Source: a virus. From it: 64,000 bases of DNA. Below, piece by piece: positions 2,599 through 50,409 of this stretch. The translations under genes were made by a program, and so were the position numbers. Within the stretch, counting starts at the first letter, position 1; every line of letters starts with the position of its first letter. The notes beneath the pieces are model-generated. The model was given only the letters and a program-made list of their open reading frames with translations, ran no database searches and was not told where the DNA came from. The stretch is taken from positions 64,485-128,484 of IMG/VR virus record IMGVR_UViG_3300031673_000004, one strand, 5' to 3'.

Positions 2599-2600
2599 TT

Positions 2601-5560: not shown

Positions 5561-5576
5561 ACAAGGAGAAAGAAAA

Positions 5577-12300: not shown

Positions 12301-14030
12301 CATTTTATTTTGGTGGGATACAAAATACAATAAAAATTACACTAAATAATGGGGTAATTTTAGAAGGAACAGAAAACCATAAGATAATGACAGTTGATGG
12401 GTGGAAAAAACTAAATGAACTAAAAATTGGTGCGTATACATTGACTATAAGTCGAAATTTTAATAAATTAAAAGGAAAAAATAAACTTCCTAAACTTGGA
12501 AAATTTAATGCAAATGCAAATAAAATTTCTGTTCCGCGTTATATGTCAAAAAATTTAGCAACATTCTTAGGAATGCTTGCGGCAGATGGTCATACAGAAG
12601 AAACAACAGGATTAGTTGGCCTTTATGAAAAGAATAAAAAGGTTGGGAAATTATTTGATGATTTAACTAAAAAATTATTTAAACAATCCCCAAAAATAAC
12701 TAAAGATAAACGTACAGGAGTAATTATACATGCTATTACAAGCAGAGTATTTTGTCGTTGGATAGAAAGTTTAATTGGAAAAAGAGCAGCAGATAAGCAT
12801 ATTCCAGTACAAATTTTACGCGGGAGTGAAACAGAAATATTAGGATTTGCTAAAGGGGTAACTCTTGATGGATATATCGCACAAGGAGCATTGATACTTT
12901 ACGATGGCAAATCTGAACAACTTGCGAGAGAATTATGTGCTTTAACTCATTTTATTGGAAGAGCCCCGTACTTAGGTAAAAAATTAGTTAAATCGCATAA
13001 CTATTATACATATAATGTACGCATATTTAATTTTAAAGGAATTGAGACACACAAGATATCAACACGCCAGGATAAAGATAGATTAGTAAAAATTCCAAAT
13101 AAATGGCACGCCATAAATTATCTTAAATTACCTGCGGACCATCCTAAATATAGTGCTATGCGAAGTATCTGGCAGAGAAAACAAAAAATAGCAAAACAAT
13201 CAACTCTTAAGGCGCTTAATCAGACATATCCTTATGATGAATACTATGTAAAAGTTTCAAAAATTGAAAAATCACGAGTACCTGTGTATGATCTAGAGGT
13301 AGAAAATACGCATTCATATATAGTCAACGGATTACTCTCCCATAATACAGTCAATGCACCAAACAGTACAACTAGAGAACAGGTTGACAATATATTCAGA
13401 TTAGCGTATAAAACCAAATGCAAGTCTACAACCATTTATAGGAGTGGTAGTAGAAAGACTGAGGTACTCATTAAAGAGCAGGAAATAACTAAGGACTCTA
13501 ATGAATCTGACGAGGAAACTACTAAACAACAAAAATCAACAGCGCCTAGATTCCGTGGGCCAGTGTTGTTTGGAGCTACATTCAAAATAAATACTCCTGG
13601 GGGTAAGGCATATATTACGATAAATGAGGACGATTACGGTCTTAGAGAGGTTTTTGTACATATTAGCAAGGCAGGCTCAGAAATTACGACGCACGTAGAA
13701 GCAGAGGGCAGATTAATTTCACATTCGTTAAAACATTGGATACCAGCAAAAACTATTATCGGCCATTTGGCGGGACACAAATCTAACCCAATTTTCGATA
13801 GCGGCAGATCTGTAAAAAGCGTACCAGATGCCGTAGCTATTGTAATGCGAGAGTATCTAGACCGTTATGAAGGCTTCTCAGAATACCTGGACAAGGAAAA
13901 CGCAACTCCAGTTACTACACCCCAACTCTCCGGGGAAATATCGGGTGAGCTATGTCCTGATTGTGGAGAAGTACTATACCAATCTGGTGGTTGTAACTAT
14001 TGCTATTGTGGATTTAGCAGATGCGGCTAG
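9369..14030 (+). CDS. nrdJ: Class II (B12-dependent) ribonucleotide reductase with two inteins, C-terminal TSCPD-like domain and Zn ribbon
   Basis: FMPATPTLINAG, LSSCF, GGGVG, QGGVRRAA, GEPG, NP/CSE, RIGLG, QPTGTVS, ISK/TVN, YRSGSR, C-terminal CPDCG..C. Confidence 0.93.
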   Translation: MTILNELAQQILAAKYYTDEETTPEQLFMRVAKVAAIPDVIDRFVQKDGTIASNLGDYFKPYTDIFNRVIARRGYTIDAALGAKEIASEYWGEETKKYYDAMCNLEFMPATPTLINAGRSIGMLSSCFFLRVPDSLEGIMETNKQTAIIAKMGGGVGLDISELRPKGSPVGTTSKGVSSGPVSFLRIFNETGMQVQQGGVRRAAMIAVMVINHPDILEFIKCKEEEGVLSNFNISVLIPDTFMEAIEVHPENIWICEWKNTQYIINKETDIPELYDANQPIDIEEYYRVKDIWEIIVDKAWHNGEPGIVFWDEVNRKDIFKGKFGKLGLNPCVPKDTWIMTLKGPRQVADLLTKDFSAAIDGENFPARKFIKTGSKQLVRITTKEGFQVKTTLNHLFRKVIGKRHVRDPNNYNGTRLTDYYEDWVPAGELNPGDTVRMHHHKNLPVWKGPGTYSDGYLLGLLIGDGYLTKTNVGKIEIWDDAGSQEMIDKVLEFVKTLHKRSDFKGFNYAEKTKKHTLTLAALHKLAKHYGAVQGNKHLTEKIEKTSYAFHVGFLRGFFDADGSVQGTQEKGVSVRVGQSSIDDLRIVQRMLLRIGIYSKIYKRREAGIHYLPDSNRNLAPYPVKASFELIISGEGLEIFLNKISFYHTQKRELLTNKVCNYKRNINKMKFIATVEHIELLPAENVYDTTVPLIHAFDGNGFYLHNCSEQFLVEKDSCSLAAINLGVCWYYSERDKRVRVDYDRLEALIKLGVQFLDNTLDINSFPLPEIEEQTLKIRRIGLGTMGLHDLMLRKEIRYGSKESLSLIDNIYSFIEKTARNTSTQLGSIRGVPDALKEFNVRNAGLLTVQPTGTVSIICNQTSPGIEPVFQWSFTRKDSYGTHQMKHFILEKFPNELPSYAVTALDIPPREHVLVQAQIQKYIDSGISKCLAKGTLIPTNKGIIPIENLGINNIPRTFGKPLKDLEVFSEDKNWHKVNSFYFGGIQNTIKITLNNGVILEGTENHKIMTVDGWKKLNELKIGAYTLTISRNFNKLKGKNKLPKLGKFNANANKISVPRYMSKNLATFLGMLAADGHTEETTGLVGLYEKNKKVGKLFDDLTKKLFKQSPKITKDKRTGVIIHAITSRVFCRWIESLIGKRAADKHIPVQILRGSETEILGFAKGVTLDGYIAQGALILYDGKSEQLARELCALTHFIGRAPYLGKKLVKSHNYYTYNVRIFNFKGIETHKISTRQDKDRLVKIPNKWHAINYLKLPADHPKYSAMRSIWQRKQKIAKQSTLKALNQTYPYDEYYVKVSKIEKSRVPVYDLEVENTHSYIVNGLLSHNTVNAPNSTTREQVDNIFRLAYKTKCKSTTIYRSGSRKTEVLIKEQEITKDSNESDEETTKQQKSTAPRFRGPVLFGATFKINTPGGKAYITINEDDYGLREVFVHISKAGSEITTHVEAEGRLISHSLKHWIPAKTIIGHLAGHKSNPIFDSGRSVKSVPDAVAIVMREYLDRYEGFSEYLDKENATPVTTPQLSGEISGELCPDCGEVLYQSGGCNYCYCGFSRCG
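10362..11486 (+). mobile_element. Intein 1 of RNR (375 aa, LAGLIDADG), inserted before the thiyl-radical Cys (NP/CSE)
   Basis: CVPKDT...YLHN/C; LLGLLIGDG, LRGFFDADG. Confidence 0.93.
12153..13346 (+). mobile_element. Intein 2 of RNR (398 aa, LAGLIDADG) in ISK/TVN
   Basis: CLAKGT...LSHN/T; GTENHKI, FLGMLAADG, VYDLEV. Confidence 0.93.
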
Positions 14031-26659: not shown

Positions 26660-28537
26660 ATGAAAGCATACGTGAATCTGTTCAAAGCATTGCCTGTAGG
26701 AAAGCGCACTAAGTCCTTCTCAACAAAGTACTTGGACAAGGGCGTGCTGGTCGAGGATTCTGTAATTGAGGCACACGGAACTGCCAAAGTTGCTAAACTG
26801 GTTCGAAGTCTCGTTCCTACAGATTCCCAGATGAACAAGACCTTCCACAAATCATGGAAGAAAGTCAGGGACGCATCTATTGAGCAGCTAGTTATAGAGC
26901 AGATCATTCACTATTTTACAACCTACAGCTTTGAAGCATTGGGCTTCTACAGTAAAGAGACTGTTTACATCCCGAATGAAAAGTTGGAGCTAGAAGCGAA
27001 AGGCGGCATCACTTTTTATGTTCTGCGTGGCATCACACGGGATGAACTGATTGATGTGGTACACAAGCTCATTTCTTCAGGGATTGCCCTATCTGACCAA
27101 GATCTTACTGATTTGGTCAAAGTCATTAAGGATCAAAAATTAAAAATTGATCCAGCTAAATCAAGCAATAGGGAGATGGCTGTCAGGTTGTACAACTTGC
27201 TTGATATTACTCCCAAAGACCCAGTTGAATACTTGCGAATGAAAGTATACGGTGCAACTGAAAGTACGCTGCTAATTAAGAACAAGGAAGCTATTGAAGC
27301 TATTTCTAGTTCTTATAGTTCTGCGCTTGGGAAAAAAATCAATGCGTTCAGCGAATACAAGAAAAAGTTTGGGCTTGAGGGTTTAGCGTCCATTTTCTAC
27401 AGGTTCAAGCCGTTGTTCTTGGCATTCAAAAATAAGAAATCAGCAGCGACAGTAAATAGTATTCGGCGGCTAGCAGTAAAGTATCACCAGCCCATGCCAG
27501 AAGATTACATTGCTTCAGTCACCAAGCATTTGCGCAACGGCACATTCAGTGCAGCCAAGCTCAATAAGAGCCTTACTAAAGCAAATATATTCAGAAAGGT
27601 ACGGCTCGCACAAGCACTGCGTCTCTATGATAACCAGGATGCATCTGGTATCGTGTACTCTATTCGCAATGGTAAATCATTTGCCGGTACTATCAATCCA
27701 CTTGGTAAGAGCGTCAAAAGATCACTATCAGTAGTAATGGATAGTTTGGGCGCAGACCTTTCCCATGTAAAAGGAAAGAAAATCTTTATGGATGCAGGGT
27801 TGGTTGTTCCTACATCAGGCAAGATGTTCATGGGTGATGTACCATTTGGGTCGTATTTTTCTACTGATGATTCACTAGTGCTAGGAGTATCTTGGCGAGA
27901 TCTAGAAGATGTCCGTGTTGATCTGGATCTTTCTATTATCTCAGTGGATGGAAAGATCGGTTGGGATGGTTATTACAGAGATCCAAGCTGCCTCTTTTCA
28001 GGAGATATTACAGCGGCCCCCAAGGGAGCTACTGAAGCACATTTGATTCGTGCCGATTCGGAGGATGGGATTTATCTCCTTAACTTGAATTACTATAACG
28101 CTAATTACTATAACGCTGATATTAATGGAGGAATAGTCCCATTCACTCTGTTCGTAACCGAGGAGAAAGGATTCGAGCGTATTGAACGGCGCGCTGTAAT
28201 GTCTCAGGATAATATGGTATTCTGGGCTGACTCTAGCATAGACAGCAAGTACAACCAGAAGACTATCGGTGTTTTGAAAATCAAGGATGGTACCAAAACA
28301 TTCCATGCCTTCGAGTTCAAGACTGGTAAAAGTATCACTTCCCGAAACAATGAAAAAAGTATGAACACGATTAGCTACTATGACAAATATCTGGATTCTC
28401 TTCTTGACTTGGAAACACTCGTAGAATGGGCAGGGGCTAAAATAGTAGATACTCCTGAGAAAGCAGATATTGATTTATCTATGAAATCGCTTACAAAGAG
28501 CACACTGATTGATCTTCTGGTAGCTGATACCAAATAA
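26660..28537 (+). CDS. Helical (ROT/TROVE-like) protein with C-terminal TerD-like domain
   Basis: C-terminal SW....VDLDLS....IGWDG.Y...FSGDITAAP.GATE; helical N-terminus with FYRFKPLFLAFK; GAGGGA RBS; TROVE-like assignment inferred from the known Prok-RING_4-type architecture. Confidence 0.6.
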   Translation: MKAYVNLFKALPVGKRTKSFSTKYLDKGVLVEDSVIEAHGTAKVAKLVRSLVPTDSQMNKTFHKSWKKVRDASIEQLVIEQIIHYFTTYSFEALGFYSKETVYIPNEKLELEAKGGITFYVLRGITRDELIDVVHKLISSGIALSDQDLTDLVKVIKDQKLKIDPAKSSNREMAVRLYNLLDITPKDPVEYLRMKVYGATESTLLIKNKEAIEAISSSYSSALGKKINAFSEYKKKFGLEGLASIFYRFKPLFLAFKNKKSAATVNSIRRLAVKYHQPMPEDYIASVTKHLRNGTFSAAKLNKSLTKANIFRKVRLAQALRLYDNQDASGIVYSIRNGKSFAGTINPLGKSVKRSLSVVMDSLGADLSHVKGKKIFMDAGLVVPTSGKMFMGDVPFGSYFSTDDSLVLGVSWRDLEDVRVDLDLSIISVDGKIGWDGYYRDPSCLFSGDITAAPKGATEAHLIRADSEDGIYLLNLNYYNANYYNADINGGIVPFTLFVTEEKGFERIERRAVMSQDNMVFWADSSIDSKYNQKTIGVLKIKDGTKTFHAFEFKTGKSITSRNNEKSMNTISYYDKYLDSLLDLETLVEWAGAKIVDTPEKADIDLSMKSLTKSTLIDLLVADTK

Positions 28538-28726
28538 CGACTCTTGGAGGGCATACTATGGCCCCTGACAGCCAAAAGCTTGATCGGGTCTTCGGAGCAC
28601 GCTCCAAACCGCCTACGCAAGCCCGGTAGGACTAAGACGGTTAGGAAGCTTCTGGAGTATAGCGAATTCTTGCTTGGGGAAATACTATATTCTGGATCTT
28701 TTTAGGGCTTATTTTTGGAGGATATA

Positions 28727-29002
28727 ATGAAACTAAAAAATATTATCTTAGGTCTTATAGAACAACTTCCCATTAAAAGAGCGTTCATAAATTTCTTCGT
28801 AACAAAAAATGCCTGGGGAATGTTTCATAAAAATTCACATCTAAGTACTAAAAGCGGTAAACATAAAATTGAATATGGATCAAAGGAATCCGCAAGGAGA
28901 GCTGCAGACAATATGCAAAAGAAGTATGGGAACTATTACAGTGTTTACAAATGTATATTCTGTGATGGTTACCATATTGGTAAAAACAGGGACAATAAAT
29001 AG
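28727..29002 (+). CDS. Small protein with Zn ribbon
   Basis: GGAGG RBS; YKCIFCDGYHIG. Confidence 0.7.
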   Translation: MKLKNIILGLIEQLPIKRAFINFFVTKNAWGMFHKNSHLSTKSGKHKIEYGSKESARRAADNMQKKYGNYYSVYKCIFCDGYHIGKNRDNK

Positions 29003-29104
29003 TTTTAAATTGCAGCGCATTAAAGATAGGCCAGAGGGTAGGTCTTGAGGGTACTCACAGTAGTCAACCATAGAGATGGTTTTGGTAACGCCCACCCCGA
29101 ATTT

Positions 29105-29177
29105 GGGCACGTAGCTCTAACGGGAGAGCAGAAGCCCTGCAAGCTTACGGTTGCCAGTTCGAATCTGGCCGTGTCCA
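29105..29177 (+). tRNA. tRNA-Ala(TGC), C33 variant
   Basis: G3:U70 pair; loop CC-TGC-AA. Confidence 0.85.
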
Positions 29178-29183
29178 TGTTTT

Positions 29184-29256
29184 GCCCAGGTAGCCGAATG
29201 GAATAGGCGGCAGTCTTAGGAACTGCAATTTGGGGGTTCGAATCCCTTCCTGGGTA
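29184..29256 (+). tRNA. tRNA-Leu(TAG), short variable loop
   Basis: GCAGT CT-TAG-GA ACTGC. Confidence 0.85.
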
Positions 29257-29385
29257 TCTCATTATTATTTGGGGCTAAACCGTAAGGTTGAATGGTACAG
29301 GTAAGTTGGATAACCAATGGCATCCGGGCGTTCAAGGTTACCACGGCCTTCTATCCGGTGTTCCAACCTGGCCAAGCCCTATTTT

Positions 29386-29469
29386 GGAAGCTAAACTTGT
29401 CGTGGGATAAGTCCCGGTTGCTACCCGGAGTGTGGGCAAAACCATGTGGTTCGACTCCACTAGAGGCCA
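29386..29469 (+). tRNA. Atypical/degenerate tRNA-Ser(GCT)
   Basis: CCGG TT-GCT-AC CCGG, long variable arm, GTGG-TTCGACT-CCAC; mismatched acceptor stem, 7-bp D stem. Confidence 0.5.
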
Positions 29470-29540
29470 TATATATAACAGACAGATAGTAATGTCAAGT
29501 AACTATTCAAGAGTTCAATCCCCTCACCACATATTTTTTT

Positions 29541-29611
29541 GGGTTGGTAGCTCAATGCTAGAGCGAGCGTATGCGCATAGCTGACACACGGTTCAATTCC
29601 TGTCCAGCCCA
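29541..29611 (+). ncRNA. tRNA-like RNA with no canonical anticodon loop
   Basis: Acceptor GGGTTGG/CCAGCCC, D arm GCTC/GAGC, T loop TTCAATT; anticodon arm AGCGTATGCGCATAGCT. Confidence 0.55.
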
Positions 29612-29616
29612 TAATA

Positions 29617-29700
29617 CGAACGCCTGGAGATGTAGGTTTGAATCCTGCTCCCGTGGCAATTACGGGATAGTTTAAAGGAGAGAATACCAGGCCGTTTTTT
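29617..29700 (+). ncRNA. Circularly permuted tRNA-like RNA (YrlA-like topology)
   Basis: CCTGG, T arm, TCCCGT-loop-ACGGGA, D arm, CCAGG, then T-run. Confidence 0.65.
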
Positions 29701-29729
29701 CAAGGTTTAGTAAGTTATGGTATTTTAAC

Positions 29730-29758
29730 TTTACAAACTTTACATTCATGAGTATTAT
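29730..29758 (+). promoter_or_regulatory. Sigma70-type promoter TTTACA-N17-TATTAT; ATG follows almost immediately (possibly leaderless)
   Basis: Consensus match; no RBS before 29765. Confidence 0.55.
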
Positions 29759-29764
29759 ATCCAC

Positions 29765-30547
29765 ATGGAACAAATCAAAAAATGCAAATTCGCTAATGGC
29801 ACTGTTTACGCACTGCACACAGATGATGGCTACCCAATTGAAACAACAGATACTTTTCTTCCCTTTTACACAAAAGATGCCATCGGAAAGCACCAAAACA
29901 AACTAGACAATTATCAGCTTGGGGATCGTTCGGAACGTTGGATGATCGGTGTTTCTGTAATGTCAGGTTGCCCTGTGAAATGTCAATTTTGTGCAACGGG
30001 GCAACTTCCAAGGTACCGAAATCTTACAAGTGATGAAATTGTTGATCAAGTTCGATTTGTCCTTCAGCAACACCCAACATTAGAATTCAGCAAAGCTAAA
30101 GAACACAAAATAAATTACACTAGAATAGGTGAACCGTTTTTATGTATTGATTCCGTGAGAAAAGCAATCGGAGAGATTGAAAAAATATACCCAAATACTC
30201 ATCATTATGTTTCTACTATTGGAATCAAAGGATCCGATTTTTCCTGGATTCAAGAAAATATAACATTACAAATATCATTGCATGCATGTTCTGACCAGCG
30301 TAGAGATGAATTAATCCCATTTCGCAATAAAATGACTATAGAAGAGTTAGGGGCAATTCGAACCAAAAGCAAATTGAAGACAACATTGAATCTTACTCTT
30401 GTAAATAAAGATGATTTTGACATAGAAATTTTGAAAAAATATTTCCCTCCAAAGTATTTCTTCATCAAGCTAAGCCCTATCAATCCTAATACAGTTTCGG
30501 AAGCACATGGATTAGACAGTGTAATCGAAGCAGTTAACTTAGTCTGA
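29765..30547 (+). CDS. RlmN/Cfr-family radical SAM enzyme, N-terminal/core part
   Basis: SVMSGCPVKCQFCATG, RNLTSDEIVDQV, IGEPF, VSTIG, LQISLHA...RDELIP; lacks the C-terminal AACGQL. Confidence 0.85.
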   Translation: MEQIKKCKFANGTVYALHTDDGYPIETTDTFLPFYTKDAIGKHQNKLDNYQLGDRSERWMIGVSVMSGCPVKCQFCATGQLPRYRNLTSDEIVDQVRFVLQQHPTLEFSKAKEHKINYTRIGEPFLCIDSVRKAIGEIEKIYPNTHHYVSTIGIKGSDFSWIQENITLQISLHACSDQRRDELIPFRNKMTIEELGAIRTKSKLKTTLNLTLVNKDDFDIEILKKYFPPKYFFIKLSPINPNTVSEAHGLDSVIEAVNLV

Positions 30548-30559
30548 AAGGAGCTTATC

Positions 30560-30679
30560 ATGGCGGAAATTATGGAGCAATTGGATGAGGCTGGTTACGA
30601 TTACGCAATTGCCATTGCAACACAAGCAGAAATCGATGCAGGTGCAGCTTGTGGGCAGCTTTCCATCATTGTAGAGTAA
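30560..30679 (+). CDS. 39-aa peptide carrying the RlmN C-terminal AACGQL motif
   Basis: AAGGAG RBS; MAEIMEQLDEAGYDYAIAIATQAEIDAGAACGQLSIIVE; in frame with the upstream ORF. Confidence 0.8.
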   Translation: MAEIMEQLDEAGYDYAIAIATQAEIDAGAACGQLSIIVE

Positions 30680-30687
30680 CTTTTATG

Positions 30688-30790
30688 CCGGGAGTGGATG
30701 AGTGCCGATATCACCAGAGTGGACAGTGGGGATAGCGGGTTTCTCCGGAGTGCCCGTCCGCCACGCAGAGTTCAAGTCTCTGCCTCCCGG
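30688..30790 (+). ncRNA. tRNA-like RNA: acceptor-like stem and T arm with a non-tRNA interior
   Basis: GCCGGGAG/CTCCCGGT termini, GCAGAG-TTCAAGT-CTCTGC. Confidence 0.5.
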
Positions 30791-30809
30791 TCTTGTCTGA
30801 ACCTACACG

Positions 30810-30943
30810 GTTGCTCTGAGGCGCGGCAGCGCCTGGGTTGCGGTTGTGGAGCTTCTACATACAAAGCCAATCTGCGTCTGCCGACAAAAGGAAAGGCATG
30901 TAGGGAAGCAATGGAGCCGGGTGGCGGAATCCGGCCAGAGCAA
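30810..30943 (+). ncRNA. Candidate structured multibranch RNA
   Basis: TTGCTCTG/CAGAGCAA closing stem, AGGCGC-GGCA-GCGCCT, GCTTC/GAAGC, GCCGG/CCGGC. Confidence 0.45.
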
Positions 30944-30973
30944 AACGGGTTGTCGGATGCAGCAGTTTATTGT

Positions 30974-31168
30974 AAATTACGAATCCCGGAGATCGCCGGT
31001 TCGAATCCGGTCAGGGTAACACCACGGCTAATCTGAATTTTACAAAGTCTAGCTAACATGTAAAATTCCCTTGAACCGATCTTCAGTTCGCGGCTGTCGA
31101 AGAGTTCATTGAACAAGATTAATACGGGATATATCCTGTAGCTCAGTGGTTAGAGCACCGGGAATTTT
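30974..31168 (+). ncRNA. Circularly permuted tRNA-like RNA with ~110-nt structured insert closing the acceptor stem
   Basis: TCCCGG, GCCGG-TTCGAAT-CCGGT, CAGGGTA, insert, TATCCTG, TAGCTCAGTGGTTAGAGC, CCGGGA. Confidence 0.7.
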
Positions 31169-31170
31169 AC

Positions 31171-31241
31171 GCGGGTATGGCCGACTGGATAGGCTCAGGG
31201 CCTCCAACCCTGCTAAGCACGTTCGATTCGTGTTGCCCGCT
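31171..31241 (+). tRNA. tRNA-Gly(TCC), C33 variant
   Basis: CAGGG CC-TCC-AA CCCTG; U73. Confidence 0.85.
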
Positions 31242-31244
31242 TAT

Positions 31245-31317
31245 GACAGTGTAGCCAAATGGTAAGGCACTGGTCTGCAAAACCAGTATGTGATGGGTTC
31301 AAATCCCTCCGCTGTCT
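31245..31317 (+). tRNA. tRNA-Cys(GCA)
   Basis: CTGGT CT-GCA-AA ACCAG; U73. Confidence 0.9.
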
Positions 31318-31320
31318 TTT

Positions 31321-31393
31321 GCCGGGGTGACGGAAAGGTATACGTGCTGCTCTCAAAAAGCAGATTTTGTCGGTTCGAATCCGACTCCCGGTA
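31321..31393 (+). tRNA. tRNA-Leu(CAA), short variable loop
   Basis: CTGCT CT-CAA-AA AGCAG. Confidence 0.88.
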
Positions 31394-31414
31394 TAATGTT
31401 AATAGGAGATAAGC

Positions 31415-31606
31415 ATGTACAGAGTATGGGTTACACAAGGACAAGGCCCAGGTGAAAAACCTCAATGTGAATTTGAAACATTAGAAGAGGCACTCGCAGA
31501 AGTAGAAAAAATGAAAGGACAAGCATCATTCGGAATTGAATATCCAGACGGAACATGGCATAATTGGGAAGAAAATAATGCTGGCGTAACTCAGTTGGTA
31601 GAGTAG
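31415..31606 (+). CDS. Small hypothetical protein (3' end overlaps tRNA-Thr)
   Basis: AGGAG RBS, TATAAT upstream. Confidence 0.6.
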   Translation: MYRVWVTQGQGPGEKPQCEFETLEEALAEVEKMKGQASFGIEYPDGTWHNWEENNAGVTQLVE

Positions 31607-31652
31607 CTGATTTGTAATCAGCAGGTCGCGGGTTCGATCCCTGCCGCCAGCT
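31580..31652 (+). tRNA. tRNA-Thr(TGT)
   Basis: GCTGA TT-TGT-AA TCAGC. Confidence 0.93.
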
Positions 31653-31788
31653 TTTCCCGGTTCGATTCCTGTCTGGGGCTTTTAGTATAATGTCAGTGGA
31701 ATGCAACGCAAATATTGCATAAAGTGTAAAAAGCTAAGATTAATCAAGTTTTTTTATACTAATAAACTCAGAAAAGGGGCAATATAGC

Positions 31789-32613
31789 ATGAAAAAAATA
31801 AGAGACATTATAGAAGACAAAACTGGATTATGGTGGCATTCCCAAAATCTAAATGATGCGCATGGTTTACACGGTTCTATGTGGCTACAGGGGCGTGCCT
31901 GGTTACAGCATCCAAGTGATTTCCGTATTGGTTACGAGTGGAATCTTACAAGTAGTTCATGTGGGATTGGTATGACGCTTGCCTCTGACGAGAACCAAAT
32001 TGCACTTCACGTCTGTTTTCCGCCGATAGCATTATATACAAATTATACATTGCCATATAAATATAATAAATATTTTAGTTATCTACTTGGCAATACAGAT
32101 AGGCGTGATACATATCTAAGTTTCCATGATTGGACTGTATGGATAGAGCTTTGGAATAATAGCTGGGAATGGTCCAATCGTAAAACATTTTGGGAACAAC
32201 ATAGTTTGAGTTTAAATCTCTTGGATCTTATTCTTGGAAGATGGAAATATACCGAGCGTATCGTTGAAGAACAAGAAGTAAAGATACCTATGCCAGAAGG
32301 AACTTATCCAGCCAAGGCCAAAATATTTGAGTCTACATGGAAACGTCCACGGTGGTTTCCACGAAAAATGATACGAGCAAGTATAGATATCAAAGATAAT
32401 CAATTAATTCCATTTCCTGGAAAAGGTGAGAATTCATGGGATTGTGGGATGGATGGTTTGAGGGGTATGACGTGTTCGGAAAAGACCATTGAAGCTGCTA
32501 TTGGTGCAGTGGTCGGCAGCGTGCTACGCTCGCGGCGTAGGCACGGCGGAAGAGGTTGGGAACCTGATGTTAAGGATATCCCTCCGATTGTAGAATCCCA
32601 TAGAATAAAATAA
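31789..32613 (+). CDS. Hypothetical Trp-rich protein
   Basis: 274-aa ORF. Confidence 0.75.
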   Translation: MKKIRDIIEDKTGLWWHSQNLNDAHGLHGSMWLQGRAWLQHPSDFRIGYEWNLTSSSCGIGMTLASDENQIALHVCFPPIALYTNYTLPYKYNKYFSYLLGNTDRRDTYLSFHDWTVWIELWNNSWEWSNRKTFWEQHSLSLNLLDLILGRWKYTERIVEEQEVKIPMPEGTYPAKAKIFESTWKRPRWFPRKMIRASIDIKDNQLIPFPGKGENSWDCGMDGLRGMTCSEKTIEAAIGAVVGSVLRSRRRHGGRGWEPDVKDIPPIVESHRIK

Positions 32614-35619: not shown

Positions 35620-36020
35620 TGAGTGAGCTAAGCTTAGTGTCATCGTTGATGTTACCGCCTACACTACGGCCAGTCATTGACAGCCCAGTATTGTAGGTTC
35701 CCCGGATTGACATCCGGGAAAGGGCTAAACTTAGTGTATTGCTCATAAACTTAGGCTAGAAACTGGGGTAGTACTTGATAGGTTATCGAACCCAAAGCTT
35801 TCGAGCTAAAGGTTCAACCCCCTGTGCGTAGGTTCAATTCCTATCCCGTTCATTTTACGAACGGGTAGCTCAGTGGTAGAGCAAGGGGATATAAGACTGA
35901 AATTACCTATTCAAGGAACTCCTAGTGAATGCACGGACACAGCACGTAACGCTGTATTTAGCAGGGTCATGCGCCTATACGAACGGTGACGACTATACTG
36001 TGCATGACCCTGCGCCTTTT
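35620..36020 (+). ncRNA. ~400-nt structured RNA with TAARCTTAG repeats and an embedded permuted tRNA-like domain (35818-35888), ending in a terminator-like hairpin
   Basis: CCCCT, GTAGG-TTCAATT-CCTAT, CCCGTTC-loop-GAACGGG, TAGCTCAGTGGTAGAGC, AGGGG, within a longer stem; GCAGGGTCATGC/GCATGACCCTGC followed by T-run. Confidence 0.7.
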
Positions 36021-43061: not shown

Positions 43062-43847
43062 TTAATTAAGTTTCTTAGCGATCTTGTCTGCCTGAGCCTT
43101 GGCATGGTGCGGAAGGGAGAAATAAAGGACTGGCCCCTTGTTATGAGGTACCAGTGTTGATCCATACGTTGCGAATGATGGATGTCGTGCATTAAACATC
43201 TTCCGTACCTCTCTGCTAACCCCCTTTGGGGACTCCAGACACCCAGATAAATCTACATTACGGCGGATATGTTTGTTGTGAATGCGCTTATGTACATCTT
43301 CTCCTGTGAATGTTTTGTGCAGATGCACCAATTCATCAACAGCGGTTTCGATTGCACTAAAATCTTGTGGTGCACACATTTTACTTCTCCTTTTCGTTGG
43401 TTCAGTTATTAAATACTCCCTACGAGATATAAACTCTTGGATATGCTCTTTTGTAAGCCCATCTTTCATTAGCCCATTTTCCACATAGATTATTTTACCG
43501 TTAGAAATAAACGATGCTATATCACCTATTTCATCATCAATAACTATATAATCCCCGGCGTACACGTTTTGTGCAACCCAATCTAAAATTTCCTGCCCAC
43601 GGCACCCATTTATTTTTGTTGCTTCTGTTTTGTCAATAACTCTTATAGAAACTCCATTGTGTGCGAAAAGTCTATCTAAATCCTCCACACTTCGCCCGAT
43701 TCTCCAACAAGATGTAACCACAATTGCACAGTGAAGCATAGAATGTAAATAATTCAAGGCAGCAACTGCCGGTGCATAAAATTTATCACGATCTGCAACT
43801 ACACTGTAATTAACTAAAACACCATCGATGTCTAAAAATAAAATCAT
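43062..43847 (-). CDS. HAD-superfamily (Swiss-Army-Knife RNA-repair type) phosphatase, in frame with a second domain that has its own RBS/ATG at 43379
   Basis: ILFLDIDGVL, VVTSCWR, RGQEI..W, YIVIDDE, DGLT. Confidence 0.8.
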   Translation of the reverse strand: MILFLDIDGVLVNYSVVADRDKFYAPAVAALNYLHSMLHCAIVVTSCWRIGRSVEDLDRLFAHNGVSIRVIDKTEATKINGCRGQEILDWVAQNVYAGDYIVIDDEIGDIASFISNGKIIYVENGLMKDGLTKEHIQEFISRREYLITEPTKRRSKMCAPQDFSAIETAVDELVHLHKTFTGEDVHKRIHNKHIRRNVDLSGCLESPKGVSREVRKMFNARHPSFATYGSTLVPHNKGPVLYFSLPHHAKAQADKIAKKLN

Positions 43848-44017
43848 TTTATTTCACCAGTTCGCATATGTTCTGTCACTTTTTGTATAAATTCTTTCCA
43901 TAGATTGTACGGAAGGTCTGTCTCTATATCGAGACGACGCCCATCAGAATCCCAAAAACTGCCTTTCACAGAATATTCACCAGGCCATTTTTGTGGCGGT
44001 GATAATTTTTTAGTCAT

Positions 44018-45268
44018 TTATCCAATCTCCACTAAATATTTTATTGTCGTTTGATCAGGCTTATAAACGATAAATTCATTATTTCTAAGATCTGCACCCC
44101 CATGAGCAAACAAGGAATCATATTCTCCTCGTTTTCTCAAATTATTATAATCGAGAGAATACATCCAAGACTCATGTCGCTTTACGTGTAGCTGACTTCC
44201 CACATGAAAATCGAACAATGCTAAAAATCCTTTCCGTGAGTTACCCCGTGCCCAATAACTCCCAGACAAAGAGCAATAACCAATTGATTTCTGGGCCTTA
44301 TCTGCTCCGTAGCAGCCTGTCCCAAACATCGAGCCGGTCAGTACCACATTCGAAGGGCGAATCAACAACCCAGAATCAATAATGTTCCACCAATTTTCAT
44401 TGCGGGAACCATGCCAGTAGGTTTGTATCGTTTTATTTTTCGAGTTATTCACAGCTTTATTAAACTTATCTTGGGTTCGCTTATTGATAATCCGAAAAGC
44501 TTTCTTATATTGATTAGAATTATGCCCCAGGAACTTCCTAATGACCTGAATATCCCCATCCGAAGGGATTTCAATACCCAATCCCATAGCATCCAGGATA
44601 GTTGCCTGCTTGTTAGGCCCACTAGTCTGCTTCTGAGCAGTTGCAACGTTCACTTGCCCGCCCATAACATCGAGGGTAGCCTGTTCATTAGCGATCAAAC
44701 GCTGAACTTCTACCAAATTTCGGGAAGTAATGCAATCAACAGGCATATCTTTCATCTGGGGGTTTTGTTCATCGATAAGATGATACTGAACCTTCTTCAT
44801 TTTACGCGGAATGACCCGGTAAAGTTCAAGAAGCTTATCATTGATTACCTCAGTCCCTTTTCCAACGACTAAAAGAGGCACTAGATCATCCATAACAGCC
44901 TGAGCAGCAACAACCATTTGTGGAGTAACGGCTTCAGAACTGATAGTATAGTTCTGCTGCACAGATTTATTTGCAAACGCTTGGAGTTCCGTAACTATAG
45001 CTGCGACCGCAGGCATTCCAATTACAGAAAAGTCGGACTTAATAGCTTCCACCGAACGTAATTCGGTCATATCTACATAGCCCTTCTTCAATTTAGACTT
45101 GATTAGTGTCTCCCATTTCCTCTTTCCGACTGGATAATGGGTTACAGTAGAGGTGACATCGACCCGTCCCCAGGTTGATGTAATACTTCCATCGGGGTTT
45201 TCAACCATATCGTAGAATTTATTATGATTATCCGCCGACACGAAGATTAATTTTGCTACCCTACCCAT
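44018..45268 (-). CDS. PARP-family ADP-ribosyltransferase: WGR + regulatory + catalytic domains
   Basis: NHNKFY..TWGRV..KLKKGY; LYRVIP; YWHGSR, MFGTGCYGAD..KS.GY, NNEFIVY (H-Y-E). Confidence 0.92.
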   Translation of the reverse strand: MGRVAKLIFVSADNHNKFYDMVENPDGSITSTWGRVDVTSTVTHYPVGKRKWETLIKSKLKKGYVDMTELRSVEAIKSDFSVIGMPAVAAIVTELQAFANKSVQQNYTISSEAVTPQMVVAAQAVMDDLVPLLVVGKGTEVINDKLLELYRVIPRKMKKVQYHLIDEQNPQMKDMPVDCITSRNLVEVQRLIANEQATLDVMGGQVNVATAQKQTSGPNKQATILDAMGLGIEIPSDGDIQVIRKFLGHNSNQYKKAFRIINKRTQDKFNKAVNNSKNKTIQTYWHGSRNENWWNIIDSGLLIRPSNVVLTGSMFGTGCYGADKAQKSIGYCSLSGSYWARGNSRKGFLALFDFHVGSQLHVKRHESWMYSLDYNNLRKRGEYDSLFAHGGADLRNNEFIVYKPDQTTIKYLVEIG

Positions 45269-45323
45269 GTTCCTGCTCCTCTCACCTTACATTGTAGGGA
45301 TTATCGGTCATTTAGTAAAGTAA

Positions 45324-45677
45324 TTATTTCTTAGAATCAGGAATTACTGCTTGTTTCGGTTCTATCCCTGCATCTTTTAGGTTTTGCCACACCTCTGCTC
45401 GGGTAGTATCACTGTTTAGTAGTGCATCCAGTCGGCCTGCATCATTTGCGCATTCCATAGCAGCGATTTTGTTACCCAAACGAAGCAAAAGAGTGGCAAT
45501 CCCAGCAATTTTCCATTTCGCTTCTATGATTCCATCTAAAGTATATTGACTTAACCCATCGATCATGATCTGTTTGTTTAGTTCTTTAGCAATAATAGCT
45601 ATTTTTCCGTGTGTTTTCGGTGCTAATTTAGCTTTTCCGACTGGTTTTTTGGCCATTTTTACCTCAAAAACACCCAT
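45324..45677 (-). CDS. Hypothetical protein
   Basis: ORF; likely start at MAKK. Confidence 0.6.
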   Translation of the reverse strand: MGVFEVKMAKKPVGKAKLAPKTHGKIAIIAKELNKQIMIDGLSQYTLDGIIEAKWKIAGIATLLLRLGNKIAAMECANDAGRLDALLNSDTTRAEVWQNLKDAGIEPKQAVIPDSKK

Positions 45678-45933
45678 AATATAGGTATTTATAGCGTTAT
45701 TTACTAAGAATATCCCTAACTTTCCTTCTTTTATGCATCTTTTGACTTAAAATTACCTGATTCTACCTCTTTTTTAGCGAAAATACGCCTTAAATGGTCA
45801 GAATACCGTTCAAATCCATCTTTATAGCGACTAAACCCGTTTATTTTCCATGATTTGCACAATAAACAGCCAGATCTACGGTTTTTTGGTCTTTTTCTCT
45901 TGTGATTTGCCATATTTTCTCTTAAAATATGCT

Positions 45934-46482
45934 TTAATCAACTAAAACGGCTACAGAAAGCACCGTAGTCCACAGTTTATCCTTATTACACAAGCAAGAT
46001 TGAGTAATATTGGAAGTTCTGACTATTTTCTTACTCATTTTGAATATATCTCTTCTTTTATCATACGCTTCATCGGCCTCAAAGTCAATTCCAAGTGTAG
46101 ATGCCAGCATAGATGCTGCTAAATCCTCTGCATAGTCACCGGAGACTTTCTCTGACTGCCCAAAACCATGGTGCTCACTAATATATCCATAGGAATTACT
46201 ATCTGATGGCAGTGCAATCCCAATTGAGGCACTCATAAGCCTGTTTGGCTCATTGTCTGAGTTACGAGCGAGTACACAGTGGAGTATTTGGCCTGTAATT
46301 AAGCTGTTTAACCCCTTTTTCCTTGAAATAATCTTTGCGTTTGGAGGAAGTATGCTTGAAACATTCACTATATTGTATTTTTCTATCCCTGCTTTGCGCA
46401 AAGCTAGTTCAAATGATGCCAATTTCTCTCTATGTTTTCCAACTCCCTTAGTTAAAAATACTTTATTTGGAACGATTGGCAT
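45934..46482 (-). CDS. pdaD: Pyruvoyl-dependent arginine decarboxylase
   Basis: PNKVFLTKGVG, SFELALR.AGI..YNIV.VSSILPP (self-cleavage SS), YGYISEHH. Confidence 0.92.
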   Translation of the reverse strand: MPIVPNKVFLTKGVGKHREKLASFELALRKAGIEKYNIVNVSSILPPNAKIISRKKGLNSLITGQILHCVLARNSDNEPNRLMSASIGIALPSDSNSYGYISEHHGFGQSEKVSGDYAEDLAASMLASTLGIDFEADEAYDKRRDIFKMSKKIVRTSNITQSCLCNKDKLWTTVLSVAVLVD

Positions 46483-46558
46483 TTATTTCTCCTGTTGCAA
46501 TTCCTAATGTTATTATACTTCAAATTTCATGTCATTTATACTTTTATTTGATTTTGGT

Positions 46559-47332
46559 TCATTTTTCAAAAAATTGACAGTATTCAAAATCATTTTTGCT
46601 AATTCCATACTTCTTTTTATGTACGATACACCCACTTTCCCCATACGAGTTTTTACATCTGTGGCCATCTACTTTACATGGACATATTGACCAGCTTATC
46701 TTTGTCTGAGCCACGTACTTCATCGTATTTTTCACTTCTTTATACTCATAAACAAAATCTATTACAACCTGTACTGGATTATACACTACATATTCTGCAT
46801 AAGCTAAATGTCCTCTGTACAATCCTTTAATCTCTGTTCCACCCTTGGCAACTAGGGAGTCAAATCCATGTATTTTCAAATAATCTTCCTGACTACCAGA
46901 CTTCTCTGGGTAATATGGTTTTCCTAGTGCAATTCTACCTTCAAGTAAATATTTGTAATGAGCACCGTCCCTATAAATAGTCCTGGCATGCCCCCACGCT
47001 TTTATTGGGTTTGGTGCTGTATAGATACCCCTACCAAATAACCCAAGACTCCAGCCCCTTCCTCCTGGCTTAAGCGATTGTATAGCGATCCATGCAATAC
47101 TATTTTGGGACGTGCCATGATAGCACCGCTGAACATTTCCAATCGCTTCCCATTCGTTAGGAACATACTTTTGAACGCGGTTTTCCCACACAGCAGATTG
47201 TGCATACCCATAGAAAGTTGGTCCAATAGCCGCTGCTTCTACAAAGCGTCTATTCCCACAGAAAATATCGTCTGTAGACTTATTTACTTTACCTGTAGGA
47301 ACAGGTTTCGATCTTTTTCTACTGCGTGCCAT
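46559..47332 (-). CDS. Second PARP-like ADP-ribosyltransferase catalytic domain with Cys-rich C-terminus
   Basis: CYHGTS, LFGRGIYTAP, FDSL, YAEYVVYNP.QV. Confidence 0.85.
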   Translation of the reverse strand: MARSRKRSKPVPTGKVNKSTDDIFCGNRRFVEAAAIGPTFYGYAQSAVWENRVQKYVPNEWEAIGNVQRCYHGTSQNSIAWIAIQSLKPGGRGWSLGLFGRGIYTAPNPIKAWGHARTIYRDGAHYKYLLEGRIALGKPYYPEKSGSQEDYLKIHGFDSLVAKGGTEIKGLYRGHLAYAEYVVYNPVQVVIDFVYEYKEVKNTMKYVAQTKISWSICPCKVDGHRCKNSYGESGCIVHKKKYGISKNDFEYCQFFEK

Positions 47333-48809
47333 ACGGAACTTCCCAAACTTTGCATTTGGAAGGATTATTAGCAGCAACTTCCGCTAATCGGGCACCAAGA
47401 GTGCATAATGCGTCATGATATTTAGACGAAAGATGATCGCCTGAGTATTCATGGGCAAATTCATGGATAAGCAACGCATTCATCTTGATAGAAGCTACAT
47501 TTTCGAACCATTTATATCCTAAACGAGATACATTGACAGTTAATCTATTCTCACCATAGGCTGCAGAAAAATTCCAACTCCGATCATTGGCAATTGTAAT
47601 ATTTATATTAGCTTCAATTAATTCCTTGGAAATCCATTGTGTATATTTGATAAATTCACGTATTCCATCCGTATATTTTTCTTCTGGAAGTATTTTTAGT
47701 GGTTTACCATTGGGATCAAATGGTTTTGGACTTGGAGTCACCCTTCCAGACGGCAATGCTAAGCTAATCCCGGATTGTTGAGCTTTTCGAATATTATTCC
47801 ATTCACCCTGGTTCATTGAACGCCCGGAAATAACTGTATAGCCCTTCGACACAGCCAGCTTATTTGCTTCTGAATCGCTTGGGTCATACGCAACAGCCTT
47901 TGTACCAAATCGGCACGTCACAGCGGTCTTTATAGCCTCTGTAGTGCACCTTTCATCCGACGTTGCCTCCCGGATCCAAGTATCATTGGCCTCGTCTTTA
48001 TCAATGAATCCATGCATCGCATTGAACACTAAAGTTCGGAGAGTTCGCAGATATGCTGGCGTTATATTATCTCTATTGAAGTTCAATGGGATTTTTTGCC
48101 CAATGTCCACATGATATTTATCAAATGTTTCTACAACCGGGATTCCCATCTCATAAACAGATGCCGGTTCACCATTATTAGTCGCATAGATAGAAACAGC
48201 GGTTTTCCTAACTGTTTTCTTAAGATTTCCTTCTTCATCGGAAATCTCAGTTGGCAGTGCTGCCTCAAAAGAAGTAAGGTAGCTTCTAGTTTTTAATTCA
48301 GTACCATTTATAGTTGTTTTTATAGTTACAGGAGGAATAAGCAAATCGATTTTGCGTATAACTTCATTGTATTCCTCTCTGGTCATACGAAGCTCACCTT
48401 CAAAGTAAGATCCTTTCTCTGTCCTATGATTAGATTTCGAGCGCGTATCTAATCCGTCCTGTTCATTGAATTCATATGAGCCGGTAGTGCTGACGATTTT
48501 AGCCCAATGGCACAGGGAAAGGACTAACTTCTCCCCCAGGTTGAACCTACCACGTTTAGTAGGGTCATCCTTCTTTTCACTTTCAGCAAATAACGTAAAC
48601 GCATGACTCAAATCCTTAAACCCATCAGGATCATCATCAGTAACTTTAATATAGACACGAGGCTTCCCCGAGATAGGCTGCAGGACAACATCTACATAGC
48701 TTGCACGACTGTCCCAGCCGTTCTGAATAAGCTCAATAACTATAAAGGACTTACCACGCTTTTCTAGTAATTTTGCTAGTCCCTTTCTGTCTACATCAAA
48801 CCATCCCAT
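47319..48809 (-). CDS. GHKL (HATPase_c) ATPase with C-terminal HExxH zincin-like motif
   Basis: ELIQNGWDS, VTDDDPDGF, GRFNLGEK; LLIHEFAHE. Confidence 0.8.
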   Translation of the reverse strand: MGWFDVDRKGLAKLLEKRGKSFIVIELIQNGWDSRASYVDVVLQPISGKPRVYIKVTDDDPDGFKDLSHAFTLFAESEKKDDPTKRGRFNLGEKLVLSLCHWAKIVSTTGSYEFNEQDGLDTRSKSNHRTEKGSYFEGELRMTREEYNEVIRKIDLLIPPVTIKTTINGTELKTRSYLTSFEAALPTEISDEEGNLKKTVRKTAVSIYATNNGEPASVYEMGIPVVETFDKYHVDIGQKIPLNFNRDNITPAYLRTLRTLVFNAMHGFIDKDEANDTWIREATSDERCTTEAIKTAVTCRFGTKAVAYDPSDSEANKLAVSKGYTVISGRSMNQGEWNNIRKAQQSGISLALPSGRVTPSPKPFDPNGKPLKILPEEKYTDGIREFIKYTQWISKELIEANINITIANDRSWNFSAAYGENRLTVNVSRLGYKWFENVASIKMNALLIHEFAHEYSGDHLSSKYHDALCTLGARLAEVAANNPSKCKVWEVPYGTQ

Positions 48810-49006
48810 AATATCTCTCCCTGCATTATGTTACTATGCTATTATAGGGATTGTTTCTTAGTTTGTAAACTTAAAGTTATTACTTTATAAACAATCACTT
48901 AGCTATTAACAATAAAAATGGTTGCTGAAGTTATGCCAGTGCCTGCCCAGCGCTATCGTCTTCCGGACTACAGGCTGCCGGAGACTTTTCCCCTTCAGCA
49001 ACCATT

Positions 49007-49243
49007 TCACATTTTATCCTTTTTAGTAATTGTTATAGTAAATTCTTTTGGAAAATCTAAATGTAGGTCGAATACCAGTAAAATGATAACCCAGTCATTA
49101 TTTACTTCTACAATCGTATACTGTACATCTTGTTCTTCTAATTTTACCCCTGCAGTTTCTGCTTTTTTATTTAATAATACTATTCCACGTTGGACATCTT
49201 CATTAAAAACAGATACTGCAGTTGCTTTGTACGATTTAAACAT
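49007..49243 (-). CDS. Hypothetical protein
   Basis: 78-aa ORF. Confidence 0.55.
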   Translation of the reverse strand: MFKSYKATAVSVFNEDVQRGIVLLNKKAETAGVKLEEQDVQYTIVEVNNDWVIILLVFDLHLDFPKEFTITITKKDKM

Positions 49244-49366
49244 GTTTCTTTTCAGAACTCTTTTTATTTAACCTTTTTTGAATCCGTTCACGTCTTTTGT
49301 TCCTTCTGTTTTCTTTTATTTTTTTCTTTTTACTTTTTCGCATTTTGACTCCGAGATCAGGTTGTT

Positions 49367-49930: not shown

Positions 49931-50078
49931 TGATATTTTCCATCATTTAATCTGTGAACTACATGAACAATTTCTGAATAATCGATAAAATCAAAGTCAA
50001 TGCAATCTCCGTCAAACATAAGAGATACTTTTATACGATTATTTTCATGCTCAAGCTTTAATCGCAAATAGTTTTTAA

Positions 50079-50306: not shown

Positions 50307-50324
50307 GCAAAACCTCCGACAGTG

Positions 50325-50392: not shown

Positions 50393-50409
50393 ATGTCTGG
50401 AGGTTACAA

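Follow-up and report, generated by a model that had tools for sequence, protein, structure and literature searches.

RlmN, the C2-methyl synthase of 23S rRNA A2503 and tRNA A37, and Cfr, the 23S rRNA A2503 C8-methyltransferase and a major multidrug-resistance enzyme, are the textbook cases of methylation via a protein-bound methylcysteine and a second catalytic cysteine. Here we describe a variant of this arrangement in a window of 64,000 nucleotides (nt) of viral DNA, namely positions 64,485 to 128,484 of IMG/VR record IMGVR_UViG_3300031673_000004; all coordinates are those of this window unless a locus is named. A core subunit of 260 amino acids (aa), an RlmN/Cfr-type radical SAM (S-adenosylmethionine) protein, is encoded on the plus strand at 29765..30547, and is followed on the same strand, at 30560..30679, by an open reading frame (ORF) of 39 aa, a small subunit or carrier peptide that bears the AACGQL motif of RlmN. 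We consider it probable, with reservations given below, that the two associate as a phage-specific heterodimer, a variant form of class A radical SAM methylase in which the peptide is a dissociable methyl carrier.

The E. coli rlmN product (NC_000913.3) reads RATLCVSSQVGC, with a cysteine at index 118 and the cysteine of AACGQL at index 355. The mechanism of RlmN and the trapping of the C118A crosslink are established (PMC9692996, PMC5130265); in the former, a 2022 review, C118 is seen mainly as a general base that triggers radical fragmentation, and another base could thus in principle replace it. The phage pair shares with RlmN (TIGR00048; PDB 3RF9/3RFA, 4PL1, 5HR6/5HR7, 6FZ6) the radical SAM core fold and its CX3CX2C motif, the GEP, ST and SLH motifs, the last helix, the last strand, and the AACGQL loop, in which the methyl-carrier cysteine has the same context. 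It differs in that a gene of its own encodes the Cys355 segment, a glycine stands in for Cys118, the N-terminal domain of about 60 residues is missing from the core, the basic residues found in the RlmN segment are gone from the peptide, which is acidic instead, the genes are phage-borne, and the score is far under the family cut-off. With Cfr (TIGR04432, NF000424; PDB 9P0P) the pair would share, by analogy, the class A mechanism, which in that enzyme relies on two conserved cysteines, C338 and C105, and the Cfr models align over the full length of core plus peptide; in contrast to Cfr, the methyl-carrier loop is on a separate peptide, the second cysteine is a glycine, the N-terminal domain is absent, and no tie to antibiotic resistance is evident.

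The sequence and the ORF list confirm the two-ORF layout proposed in a preliminary description of this DNA. The core ends with a genuine, not recoded, TGA stop codon (30545..30547, plus strand), and the Shine-Dalgarno (SD) sequence AAGGAG of the peptide comes next (30548..30553, plus strand), 6 nt ahead of the ATG at 30560. This ATG is 12 nt past the TGA, in the same frame as the core (795 = 265 x 3), and the peptide reads MAEIMEQLDEAGYDYAIAIATQAEIDAGAACGQLSIIVE. A full AAGGAG precedes 4 of the 52 ORFs scanned in the window, the peptide among them, and any SD-like motif precedes 18; the same scan found no such motif ahead of the core ORF. The preliminary description also gave the pair its own promoter. 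A promoter-like site, TTTACA-17-TATTAT, does exist at 29730..29758 on the plus strand, with 10 of 12 consensus matches, and ends 7 nt before the core ATG, but it has the standing of a consensus match only, since the stretch from 28500 to 32000 has seven sites of that level where shuffled sequence would give 7.5. If used, it would make the core mRNA nearly leaderless. No additional copies of core or peptide were found within the window, and no near-identical DNA in the phage collection.

The core is an RlmN/Cfr-type radical SAM domain that has neither the N-terminal domain of RlmN nor its C-terminal Cys loop. Among NCBIfam methylase families, matches with E < 1e-9 are confined to RlmN and Cfr: model TIGR00048 scores 72.5 bits on the core alone and 76.4 bits on the sequence read through, for a cut-off of 290, and the Cfr models score 49-59 bits (49-53 for the core alone), for cut-offs of 468-550, and are spanned end to end solely when core and peptide are read jointly. 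The Pfam scan reports Radical_SAM alone, with 28.6 bits, slightly below the cut-off. A profile search of the PDB matches RlmN and Cfr chains only. The AlphaFold model of the core, computed from a 26-sequence alignment, has a pLDDT of 91.6, and the top 11 Foldseek matches of this model are all RlmN or Cfr chains, with TMq of 0.62-0.68 and target-normalised TM-scores of just 0.49-0.54; entries 5HR6/5HR7 are among the fold matches. In the MAFFT alignment the core starts at the RlmN beta-hairpin, and residues 1 to ~62 of E. coli RlmN have no counterpart; the legend of Figure 2 of PMC9692996 describes an N-terminal helical accessory domain for the RlmN/Cfr class. Overall charge was considered as a clue to RNA binding and set aside as uninformative: the median pI is 7.6 for the split cores, about 5 for fused phage forms, and 6.6 for E. 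coli RlmN.

The cysteines of the CX3CX2C motif for the [4Fe-4S] cluster are Cys69, Cys73 and Cys76 (29969..29992, plus strand). Seven residues before Cys69, at the position called -7 below, stands Gly62, in the context WMIGVSVMSGC; its codon is at 29948..29950 on the plus strand. Both the MAFFT alignment and the profile-to-PDB alignment place Gly62 on Cys118, the resolving or general-base cysteine of RlmN, and both align EIDAGAACGQL of the peptide on DDIDAACGQL of RlmN. Alignment and conservation together identify Cys31 of the peptide (codon at 30650..30652, plus strand) as the equivalent of the methyl-carrier Cys355. Among the 26 aligned cores, Gly62 is invariant, and the only invariant cysteines are C69, C73 and C76. 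The replacement of C118 by glycine, already noted in the preliminary description, is thus borne out by both alignments and by all 160 IMG/VR loci presented below, and the 26 cores offer no substitute cysteine for that position.

The peptide aligns as a homolog of the last helix, the last strand and the Cys355 loop of RlmN. Twelve of its positions are invariant among 17 diverse sequences: L8, A16, A18, A20, T21, E24, A29, A30, C31, G32, Q33 and I37. It is a coding gene under purifying selection, since the median pN/pS is 0.24 over 136 pairs (median pS 0.81, median pN 0.20); together with its own SD, this bears out the claim that the C355 loop is on a separate peptide. Its net charge is -8, with zero Lys/Arg, and the median over the peptide set is -4. 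In structure prediction, the core-peptide complex obtains an ipSAE of 0.65, a value reached by 58 of 80 solved complexes and by 2 of 110 mismatched pairs, and the best of three controls scores 0.00. At least 49% of contacts agree between runs, and the pLDDT of the partner is at least 56. Residues 13-17 of the peptide are predicted to pair with residues 232-236 of the core, and its helix to lie on residues 218-224. The co-folding check suggested in the preliminary description thus predicts binding, with the peptide docked as the missing last strand of the core; this pass may partly reflect likeness to solved structures, because the RlmN segment docks likewise in one chain.

Some peptide genes of relatives are longer. 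In Vibrio phage D479 (L004 2830-3081), the peptide ORF consists of two tandem modules, with …AGFDAGLAIATDAEV(N/D)AGAACGQMAIL… occurring twice; no other peptide ORF in the four split cultured-phage records or in a set of 28 loci has this form. Extensions of about 25 to 70 residues after the peptide module are found in L114 (3310-3663) and in Yersinia phage vB_YenM_P778 (L189 4163-4459), and these sequences suggest that the C-terminus of the carrier can bear extra sequence. Tandem modules and C-terminal extensions are consistent with a consumable or cargo-bearing peptide.

Two ORFs in frame and 12 nt apart, as in this window, may also be explained otherwise: the TGA could be read through, be a sequencing error, or stem from a recent lesion. 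The product would then be one fused protein of 304 aa, or the gene would be dead. Comparison with relatives leaves such explanations a negligible probability. A protein search of phage records matched 32 records. In Kehishuvirus tikkala, the core stops at TAA, and 2 nt further on the peptide ORF opens in a different frame; Moorella phage MTATph1 is also split, with TAA as core stop, and so are Vibrio phage D479 and Yersinia phage vB_YenM_P778, the latter with a 90-aa gene intervening. In all four cultured phages, Gly occupies the place of C118 and the core chain has no Cys loop of its own. Two scans of IMG/VR, the first with 458 relatives and the second, based on a more distant alignment, with 267, contribute their best 80 each, for 160 loci that are partly on the same contigs. 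Gly is at -7 in 80/80 and 80/80 of these, the Cys loop is in cis in none of the 160, and a same-strand peptide ORF is present in 76/80 and 74/80.

The placement of the peptide varies widely. In the first scan, 38 peptide ORFs are adjacent to the core, with 5, 5 and 28 in frames 0, 1 and 2, and 38 others are more than 100 nt downstream; in the second, one peptide gene is upstream of the core. The core stops are TAA, TAG or TGA, separated peptides are sometimes 0.5-2 kb away, and the in-frame layout of this window is shared by only 9 of 68 adjacent pairs (5/38 and 4/30 in the two scans). None of the 160 loci is fused, contrary to what a lesion in an otherwise fused family with intact C118 would predict. 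Moreover, the peptide has its own SD and is under selection, TGA terminates 16 of the 52 long ORFs of the window, and no tRNA with a UCA anticodon was found among the 23 tRNAs called in the window by ARAGORN and the one further tRNA called by Rfam, the anticodon loop of the latter not having been read. Recoding of TGA by a suppressor tRNA was ruled out on the grounds of the missing UCA tRNA, the common TGA stops, and the other stops and frames of relatives; readthrough, which the preliminary description had named as an alternative, is refuted as a general explanation. The split is real and old, and concerns two genes.

The association between split and glycine can be followed further, in a search of 1.84 billion representative sequences that yields 2839 matches at E up to 0.001, of which the best 150 were sorted. 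Among these best 150 of 2839, none of the 25 full-length proteins with Gly at -7 has a CGQ-type loop, which agrees with the co-occurrence at 160/160 IMG/VR loci; of the 32 with Cys at -7, 28 have the loop and the remaining four are truncated or broken up. Proteins of a third group carry I, N, M, V, T or A at -7, and here too the loop is in cis. Seven representatives with Cys at -7 and no CGQ were considered as exceptions and rejected: three have variant loops (CGM/CGT), and four are truncated or interrupted by other sequence.

A quick IQ-TREE phylogeny, with SH-aLRT support and midpoint root, was built on 87 of 156 sequences; rows with no parsable cluster motif, with fewer than 35 residues before the motif, or with fewer than 185 after it were left out. 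All 25 Gly rows, with three others, fall on one side of the midpoint root, and the starred branches of the tree force one change. The split and the glycine may therefore be a single evolutionary event, and co-occurrence compatible with one event does not count as repeated independent evidence. The third group, fused and without Cys118, forms a clade of 23 rows in the quick tree, with support 100; in the 21 of them that were aligned, the only invariant cysteines are the three of the cluster and that of CGQ. Since this fused clade also lacks C118, the loss of C118 is not tied to splitting: the coupling proposed in the preliminary description holds within the split clade, where the two always go together, and fails outside it. 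A C118-independent completion of the reaction probably exists in the superfamily, to judge from these sequences. The fused rows without Cys118 (P0058, P0062, P0070, P0073, P0086 and 16 more) have a GSNCGQ loop in cis, and one member is named from a candidate division WOR-3 bacterium.

A separate clade gathers the Cys-bearing rows, including E. coli RlmN and the fused RlmN-like proteins of phages such as Stenotrophomonas phages BUCTxx99 and ANB28, Salmonella phage Arash, Aeromonas phage Ahp1 and Vibrio phage 166E36-1. Like the split pair, these are phage-borne, about 310 aa long, and without the RlmN N-terminal domain; unlike it, they are single chains: 68 of 69 parsed loci have a Cys at the place of C118 and GGGCGQLW in the same protein, and canonical turnover would be expected.

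Yet another subgroup, cellular relatives of about 275 aa that we call class b, has Gly at -7, ends directly after the last strand, and lies inside the Gly side of the tree. No CGQ peptide was found near class b cores at 19 loci, and class b relatives were not found in IMG/VR; they are on cellular contigs, beside genes for ribosomal proteins, EF-G, ValRS or FtsZ. On these metagenome contigs (L085-L103), class b belongs to a conserved cluster with a protein of ~340 aa (MKIITTIPPYAPF...), a Ser/Gly-rich protein of ~350 aa, and a kinase-like fragment.

The mechanism that we propose for the phage pair is modelled on RlmN. The 260-aa core would bind the [4Fe-4S] cluster and SAM; the acidic 39-aa peptide, translated separately from its strong ribosome-binding site, would dock on the core as the missing last helix and beta-strand, thereby supplying the active site in trans with Cys31 on a flexible AACGQL loop. 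Cys31 would then be S-methylated by one SAM, as in RlmN; a 5'-deoxyadenosyl radical from a second SAM would take a hydrogen from the methyl group; and the resulting Cys-S-CH2 radical would add to an sp2 carbon of an adenine, C2 or C8. With an invariant Gly at the Cys118 position and no further conserved Cys, the pair must end the reaction in another way than RlmN does. In a last step, another base or a reductant might free the methylated adenine, leaving the peptide dissociable and possibly sacrificial. We would give about an even chance to a methylated product with the peptide as dissociable or sacrificial carrier; a stable peptide-adenine conjugate, the chief alternative, seems rather unlikely as outcome, and other chemistry takes what is left.

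The preliminary description had proposed that the reaction halts at the covalent intermediate, with the 39-aa peptide joined via Cys-S-CH2 to an RNA adenosine (tRNA A37 or 23S A2503), its separate chain letting the core be released and turn over. RlmN C118 and Cfr C105 variants do stay crosslinked to RNA (PMC9692996). The same proposal is in line with the appearance of 5HR6/5HR7 among the fold matches, with a glycine that never varies at the 160 loci while no other Cys is conserved, with a pair that is never re-fused even though 9 of 68 adjacent pairs are in frame, with the tandem copies or C-terminal extensions of some peptides, and with a strong SD for the peptide and none for the core. However, split and Gly are perhaps one event, and the 23-row fused clade also lacks Cys118, with no conserved fifth Cys in its 21 aligned rows: a fused enzyme that crosslinks to itself would be single-use, which argues for another resolution of the adduct. 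The view of C118 as a general base (PMC9692996) also counts against the proposal, and so do the strong acidity of the peptide, the missing RlmN N-terminal domain, and the lack of a conserved tie to tRNA genes. We regard this outcome as unlikely.

By homology, the target would be an RNA adenosine, with tRNA A37 as nearest precedent, and we estimate the chance that the target is RNA at a little less than even. The activity of RlmN with U33G tRNA is down two-fold only (PMC5130265). In this phage, the pair sits in a region of tRNA and RNA-repair genes: tRNA genes flank it at 29104-29258, 29541-29611, and from 31171 onward. The preliminary description had placed the pair inside a tRNA array, and this is correct for the window, but not as a conserved setting. 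In representative loci, a tRNA is found within 2.5-3 kb of the pair in 2 of 25 split and 4 of 34 fused cases, and tRNA adjacency was rejected as a family trait on these counts. Another split-type set gives 2 of 33 loci (L020 and L054), while the fused L003 has tRNAs and L004 has none; of 65 distinct sequences downstream of the peptide gene, 5 have a T-arm-like motif in the first 260 nt. In L054, ARAGORN calls a tRNA directly after the peptide gene (3929-4009), with an eight-base anticodon loop (four-base anticodon 'catc').

Different neighbours emerge from 25 representative split loci with cores at most 75% identical, from which 120 neighbouring same-strand ORFs, each 95 aa or longer, were scanned against Pfam. 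The commonest families are NAPRTase (6), Radical_SAM (6), NAMPT_N (5), NUDIX (5) and CTP_transf_like (5), and NAD-salvage genes, that is Nampt and Nmnat-Nudix, are the commonest family-wide neighbours of the pair. They stand beside it in 8 of the 25 loci, in orders such as Nmnat-Nudix, core, peptide, Nampt (L107), or Nampt, core, peptide (L112), or Nmnat, Nampt, core, peptide ... PARP-like (L155), and likewise in L051, L011, L179, L109 and L006. The fused Cys118-bearing phage relatives have such neighbours in 7 of 34 representatives and 9 of 80 loci, Vibrio phage 166E36-1 has them too, and a NAPRTase-family gene is present somewhere in 7 of 15 further records. Phage Nampt and Nmnat make up NARP2, an NAD+ reconstitution pathway reported from about 1.1% of sequenced phages (preprint 10.1101/2024.02.11.579819). 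NARP2 genes thus accompany the split pair at 8 of 25 representative loci, on both sides of it in some, although the enzymes of the pathway are unrelated to the pair and the window has none of these genes: three Nampt and two Nmnat-Nudix queries gave no tblastn match there at E 1e-3.

These neighbours suggest that the target could be an adenine nucleotide of the NAD family (NAD+, ADP-ribose, a derived signal or a cap) rather than RNA, and that split and fused phage RlmN-like enzymes work with NARP2 against NAD-depleting host defences. Judged by family-wide neighbourhood, an NAD-type adenine nucleotide would be nearly as likely a target; we rate an NAD-type nucleotide or group as possible but doubtful, and leave the remainder to other targets. 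Besides the neighbour families and the split and fused counts, the low tRNA adjacency in the same loci (2/25 and 4/34), the further NAPRTase records, the frequency of NARP2 and the absence of the RlmN N-terminal domain would all fit such a target. On the other hand, the adjacency may mirror shared accessory or anti-defence islands, which hold RNA ligase and PARP-like genes too; 17 of the 25 split representatives have no NAD gene nearby; and the 64-kb window contains no Nampt or Nmnat, only two PARP-domain ORFs 13-17 kb off. We know of no RlmN or Cfr relative that acts on a free nucleotide, and a slow radical SAM enzyme with a stoichiometric peptide could presumably not modify a millimolar NAD pool. 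In this specific form, with the enzymes acting alongside NARP2, the proposal remains somewhat improbable to us. A T4 Rnl1-type RNA ligase gene adjoins the split pair in L106 (3595-4740) and a fused relative in L253 (1980-2918).

The Radical_SAM neighbours raise one more possibility. A second radical SAM gene is beside or between core and peptide at 6 of the 25 representative loci, and two accessory modules recur. The first comprises an rSAM-A and a class I methyltransferase of ~150 aa (L013 3780-4968, L105 3354-3815, L115 3405-4651); the methyltransferases of L105 and L115 are 47% identical, and the gene is also in the L013 type. This module is found in gut crAss-like and aquatic phages, and the L013-type rSAM has an unusual spaced Cys motif. 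The second module is rSAM-B (L008 3877-5094, L053 3759-4973, L058 4478-5706, L121 3986-4873, L169 3581-4402), which is 28-35% identical among L053, L058, L121 and L169; in L008, L053 and L058 it is adjoined by a protein of ~115 aa with a Ser-rich C-terminus that ends in GRC or SRC.

It is then conceivable that the peptide is itself the substrate, as in RiPP systems or as a scaffold: the core would tailor its Cys, without nucleic acid, sometimes assisted by a second radical SAM enzyme and a methyltransferase. Apart from the recurrence of these genes, what is known of the pair speaks against this. Its sequence marks the peptide clearly as an RlmN-type C-terminus that has become detached, which sets it apart from a RiPP precursor; it is predicted to complete the fold of the core, not to bind as a leader-core substrate; the Pfam scan found in the core none of the SPASM or RiPP-recognition domains expected of a maturase; and the window, like many other loci, holds the two genes only. 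We give this possibility a very small probability. Accessory rSAM, methyltransferase, 'GRC-tail', SPFH or upstream genes of relatives were searched for, and none is in the window.

Several observations weigh against a methylase with a dissociable carrier. In RlmN, C118S behaves like C118A. E. coli RlmN C118A does not complete the reaction (PMC9692996), and a methylated product would consequently need a substitute for Cys118, of which none is visible in the sequence. The score of the core is far under the RlmN/Cfr equivalog cut-offs (72.5 against 290 bits), and with the RlmN N-terminal domain absent, RNA binding is not assured. The extra enzymes that recur between core and peptide hint at a longer pathway in some phages, while the window is without accessory genes, Nampt or Nmnat, and proximity to tRNA genes is not conserved in the split (2/25) or fused (4/34) representatives. 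Finally, chemistry, target and product are inferred by analogy for all members.

The window as a whole comes from a large tailed phage, and codes for a DNA polymerase, a UvsX-like recombinase, an SbcC-like protein and a ribonucleotide reductase of 1553 aa. The tRNA at 29541-29611 (plus strand), absent from the ARAGORN calls, is the one added by Rfam, with 39.8 bits for a gathering score of 29. A tRNA-like element at 30687-30791, also on the plus strand, starts 8 nt after the peptide stop and is called by neither ARAGORN nor Rfam: it has an 8-bp acceptor-like stem, a canonical T-arm (GCAGAGUUCAAGUCUCUGC), and a long irregular arm that replaces the anticodon stem-loop, with a folding energy of -47.6 kcal/mol (z -2.3). 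Further along the tRNA region, 35803-35912 (plus strand) weakly matches YrlA, a Y RNA-like family, with 32.3 bits for a gathering score of 69 (E 0.0011).

A gene cluster of conflict or RNA-repair type extends from 43062 to 51582, 12-21 kb downstream of the pair. It contains, on the minus strand, an HAD domain of 'Swiss Army Knife' RNA repair proteins (43062-43847), the two ORFs with a PARP catalytic domain, 13-17 kb from the pair (44018-45268 and 46559-47377), and a pyruvoyl-dependent arginine decarboxylase (45934-46482), and, on the plus strand, an RlaP nucleotidyltransferase (50410-51582). Insertions, which could be inteins or homing elements, seem to break up the replication genes at 34-14030: an endonuclease match is found in both the DNA polymerase and the ribonucleotide reductase ORFs, and the UvsX-like ORF shows additional matches to terminase and helicase-loader families.

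A search of full-text literature found nothing on a split or phage RlmN-like enzyme. Radical SAM and RlmN are unmentioned in the main texts of 10.1101/2024.02.11.579819, PMC11662467, PMC13464706 and PMC7824862; supplementary gene lists might name the neighbour. What is new here is the possible origin of split and Gly in one event, the fused clade without Cys118, and the cellular subgroup without loop, together with a measured weakness of the tRNA link and a measured NAD-salvage link in both split and fused phage forms.

Taken at its widest, the case for a covalent product would make the pair a peptide-nucleotide conjugase, in which the methylated Cys is irreversibly coupled via Cys-S-CH2 to an adenine, either of RNA (tRNA, NAD-capped) or of an NAD-derived nucleotide. 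Were this so, the Gly at the Cys118 position would block resolution of the bond, the split would let the core turn over, and the conjugate would act in an arms race with host defence centred on NAD and RNA; the position of the pair in Nampt/Nmnat cassettes, tRNA arrays and RNA-repair islands would then be explained. We hold the conjugase to be improbable, and still prefer the methylase with a dissociable carrier.

Cultured carriers with tractable hosts exist, namely Yersinia phage vB_YenM_P778, Vibrio phage D479 and, on Bacteroides, Kehishuvirus tikkala, which makes the question directly testable; Pectobacterium phages Wc4 and Arno18 probably carry the system as well, on the strength of a core match only. 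In this large natural clade, the methyl-carrier Cys is on a free peptide and the second Cys is replaced by Gly: the clade either finishes the reaction in a new way or makes a covalent peptide-adenine conjugate, which, if true, would add a new kind to the known modifications of nucleic acids or nucleotides. For the target, the link with NAD reconstitution offers a second hypothesis, one that would tie the enzyme to NAD-depleting anti-phage defence.

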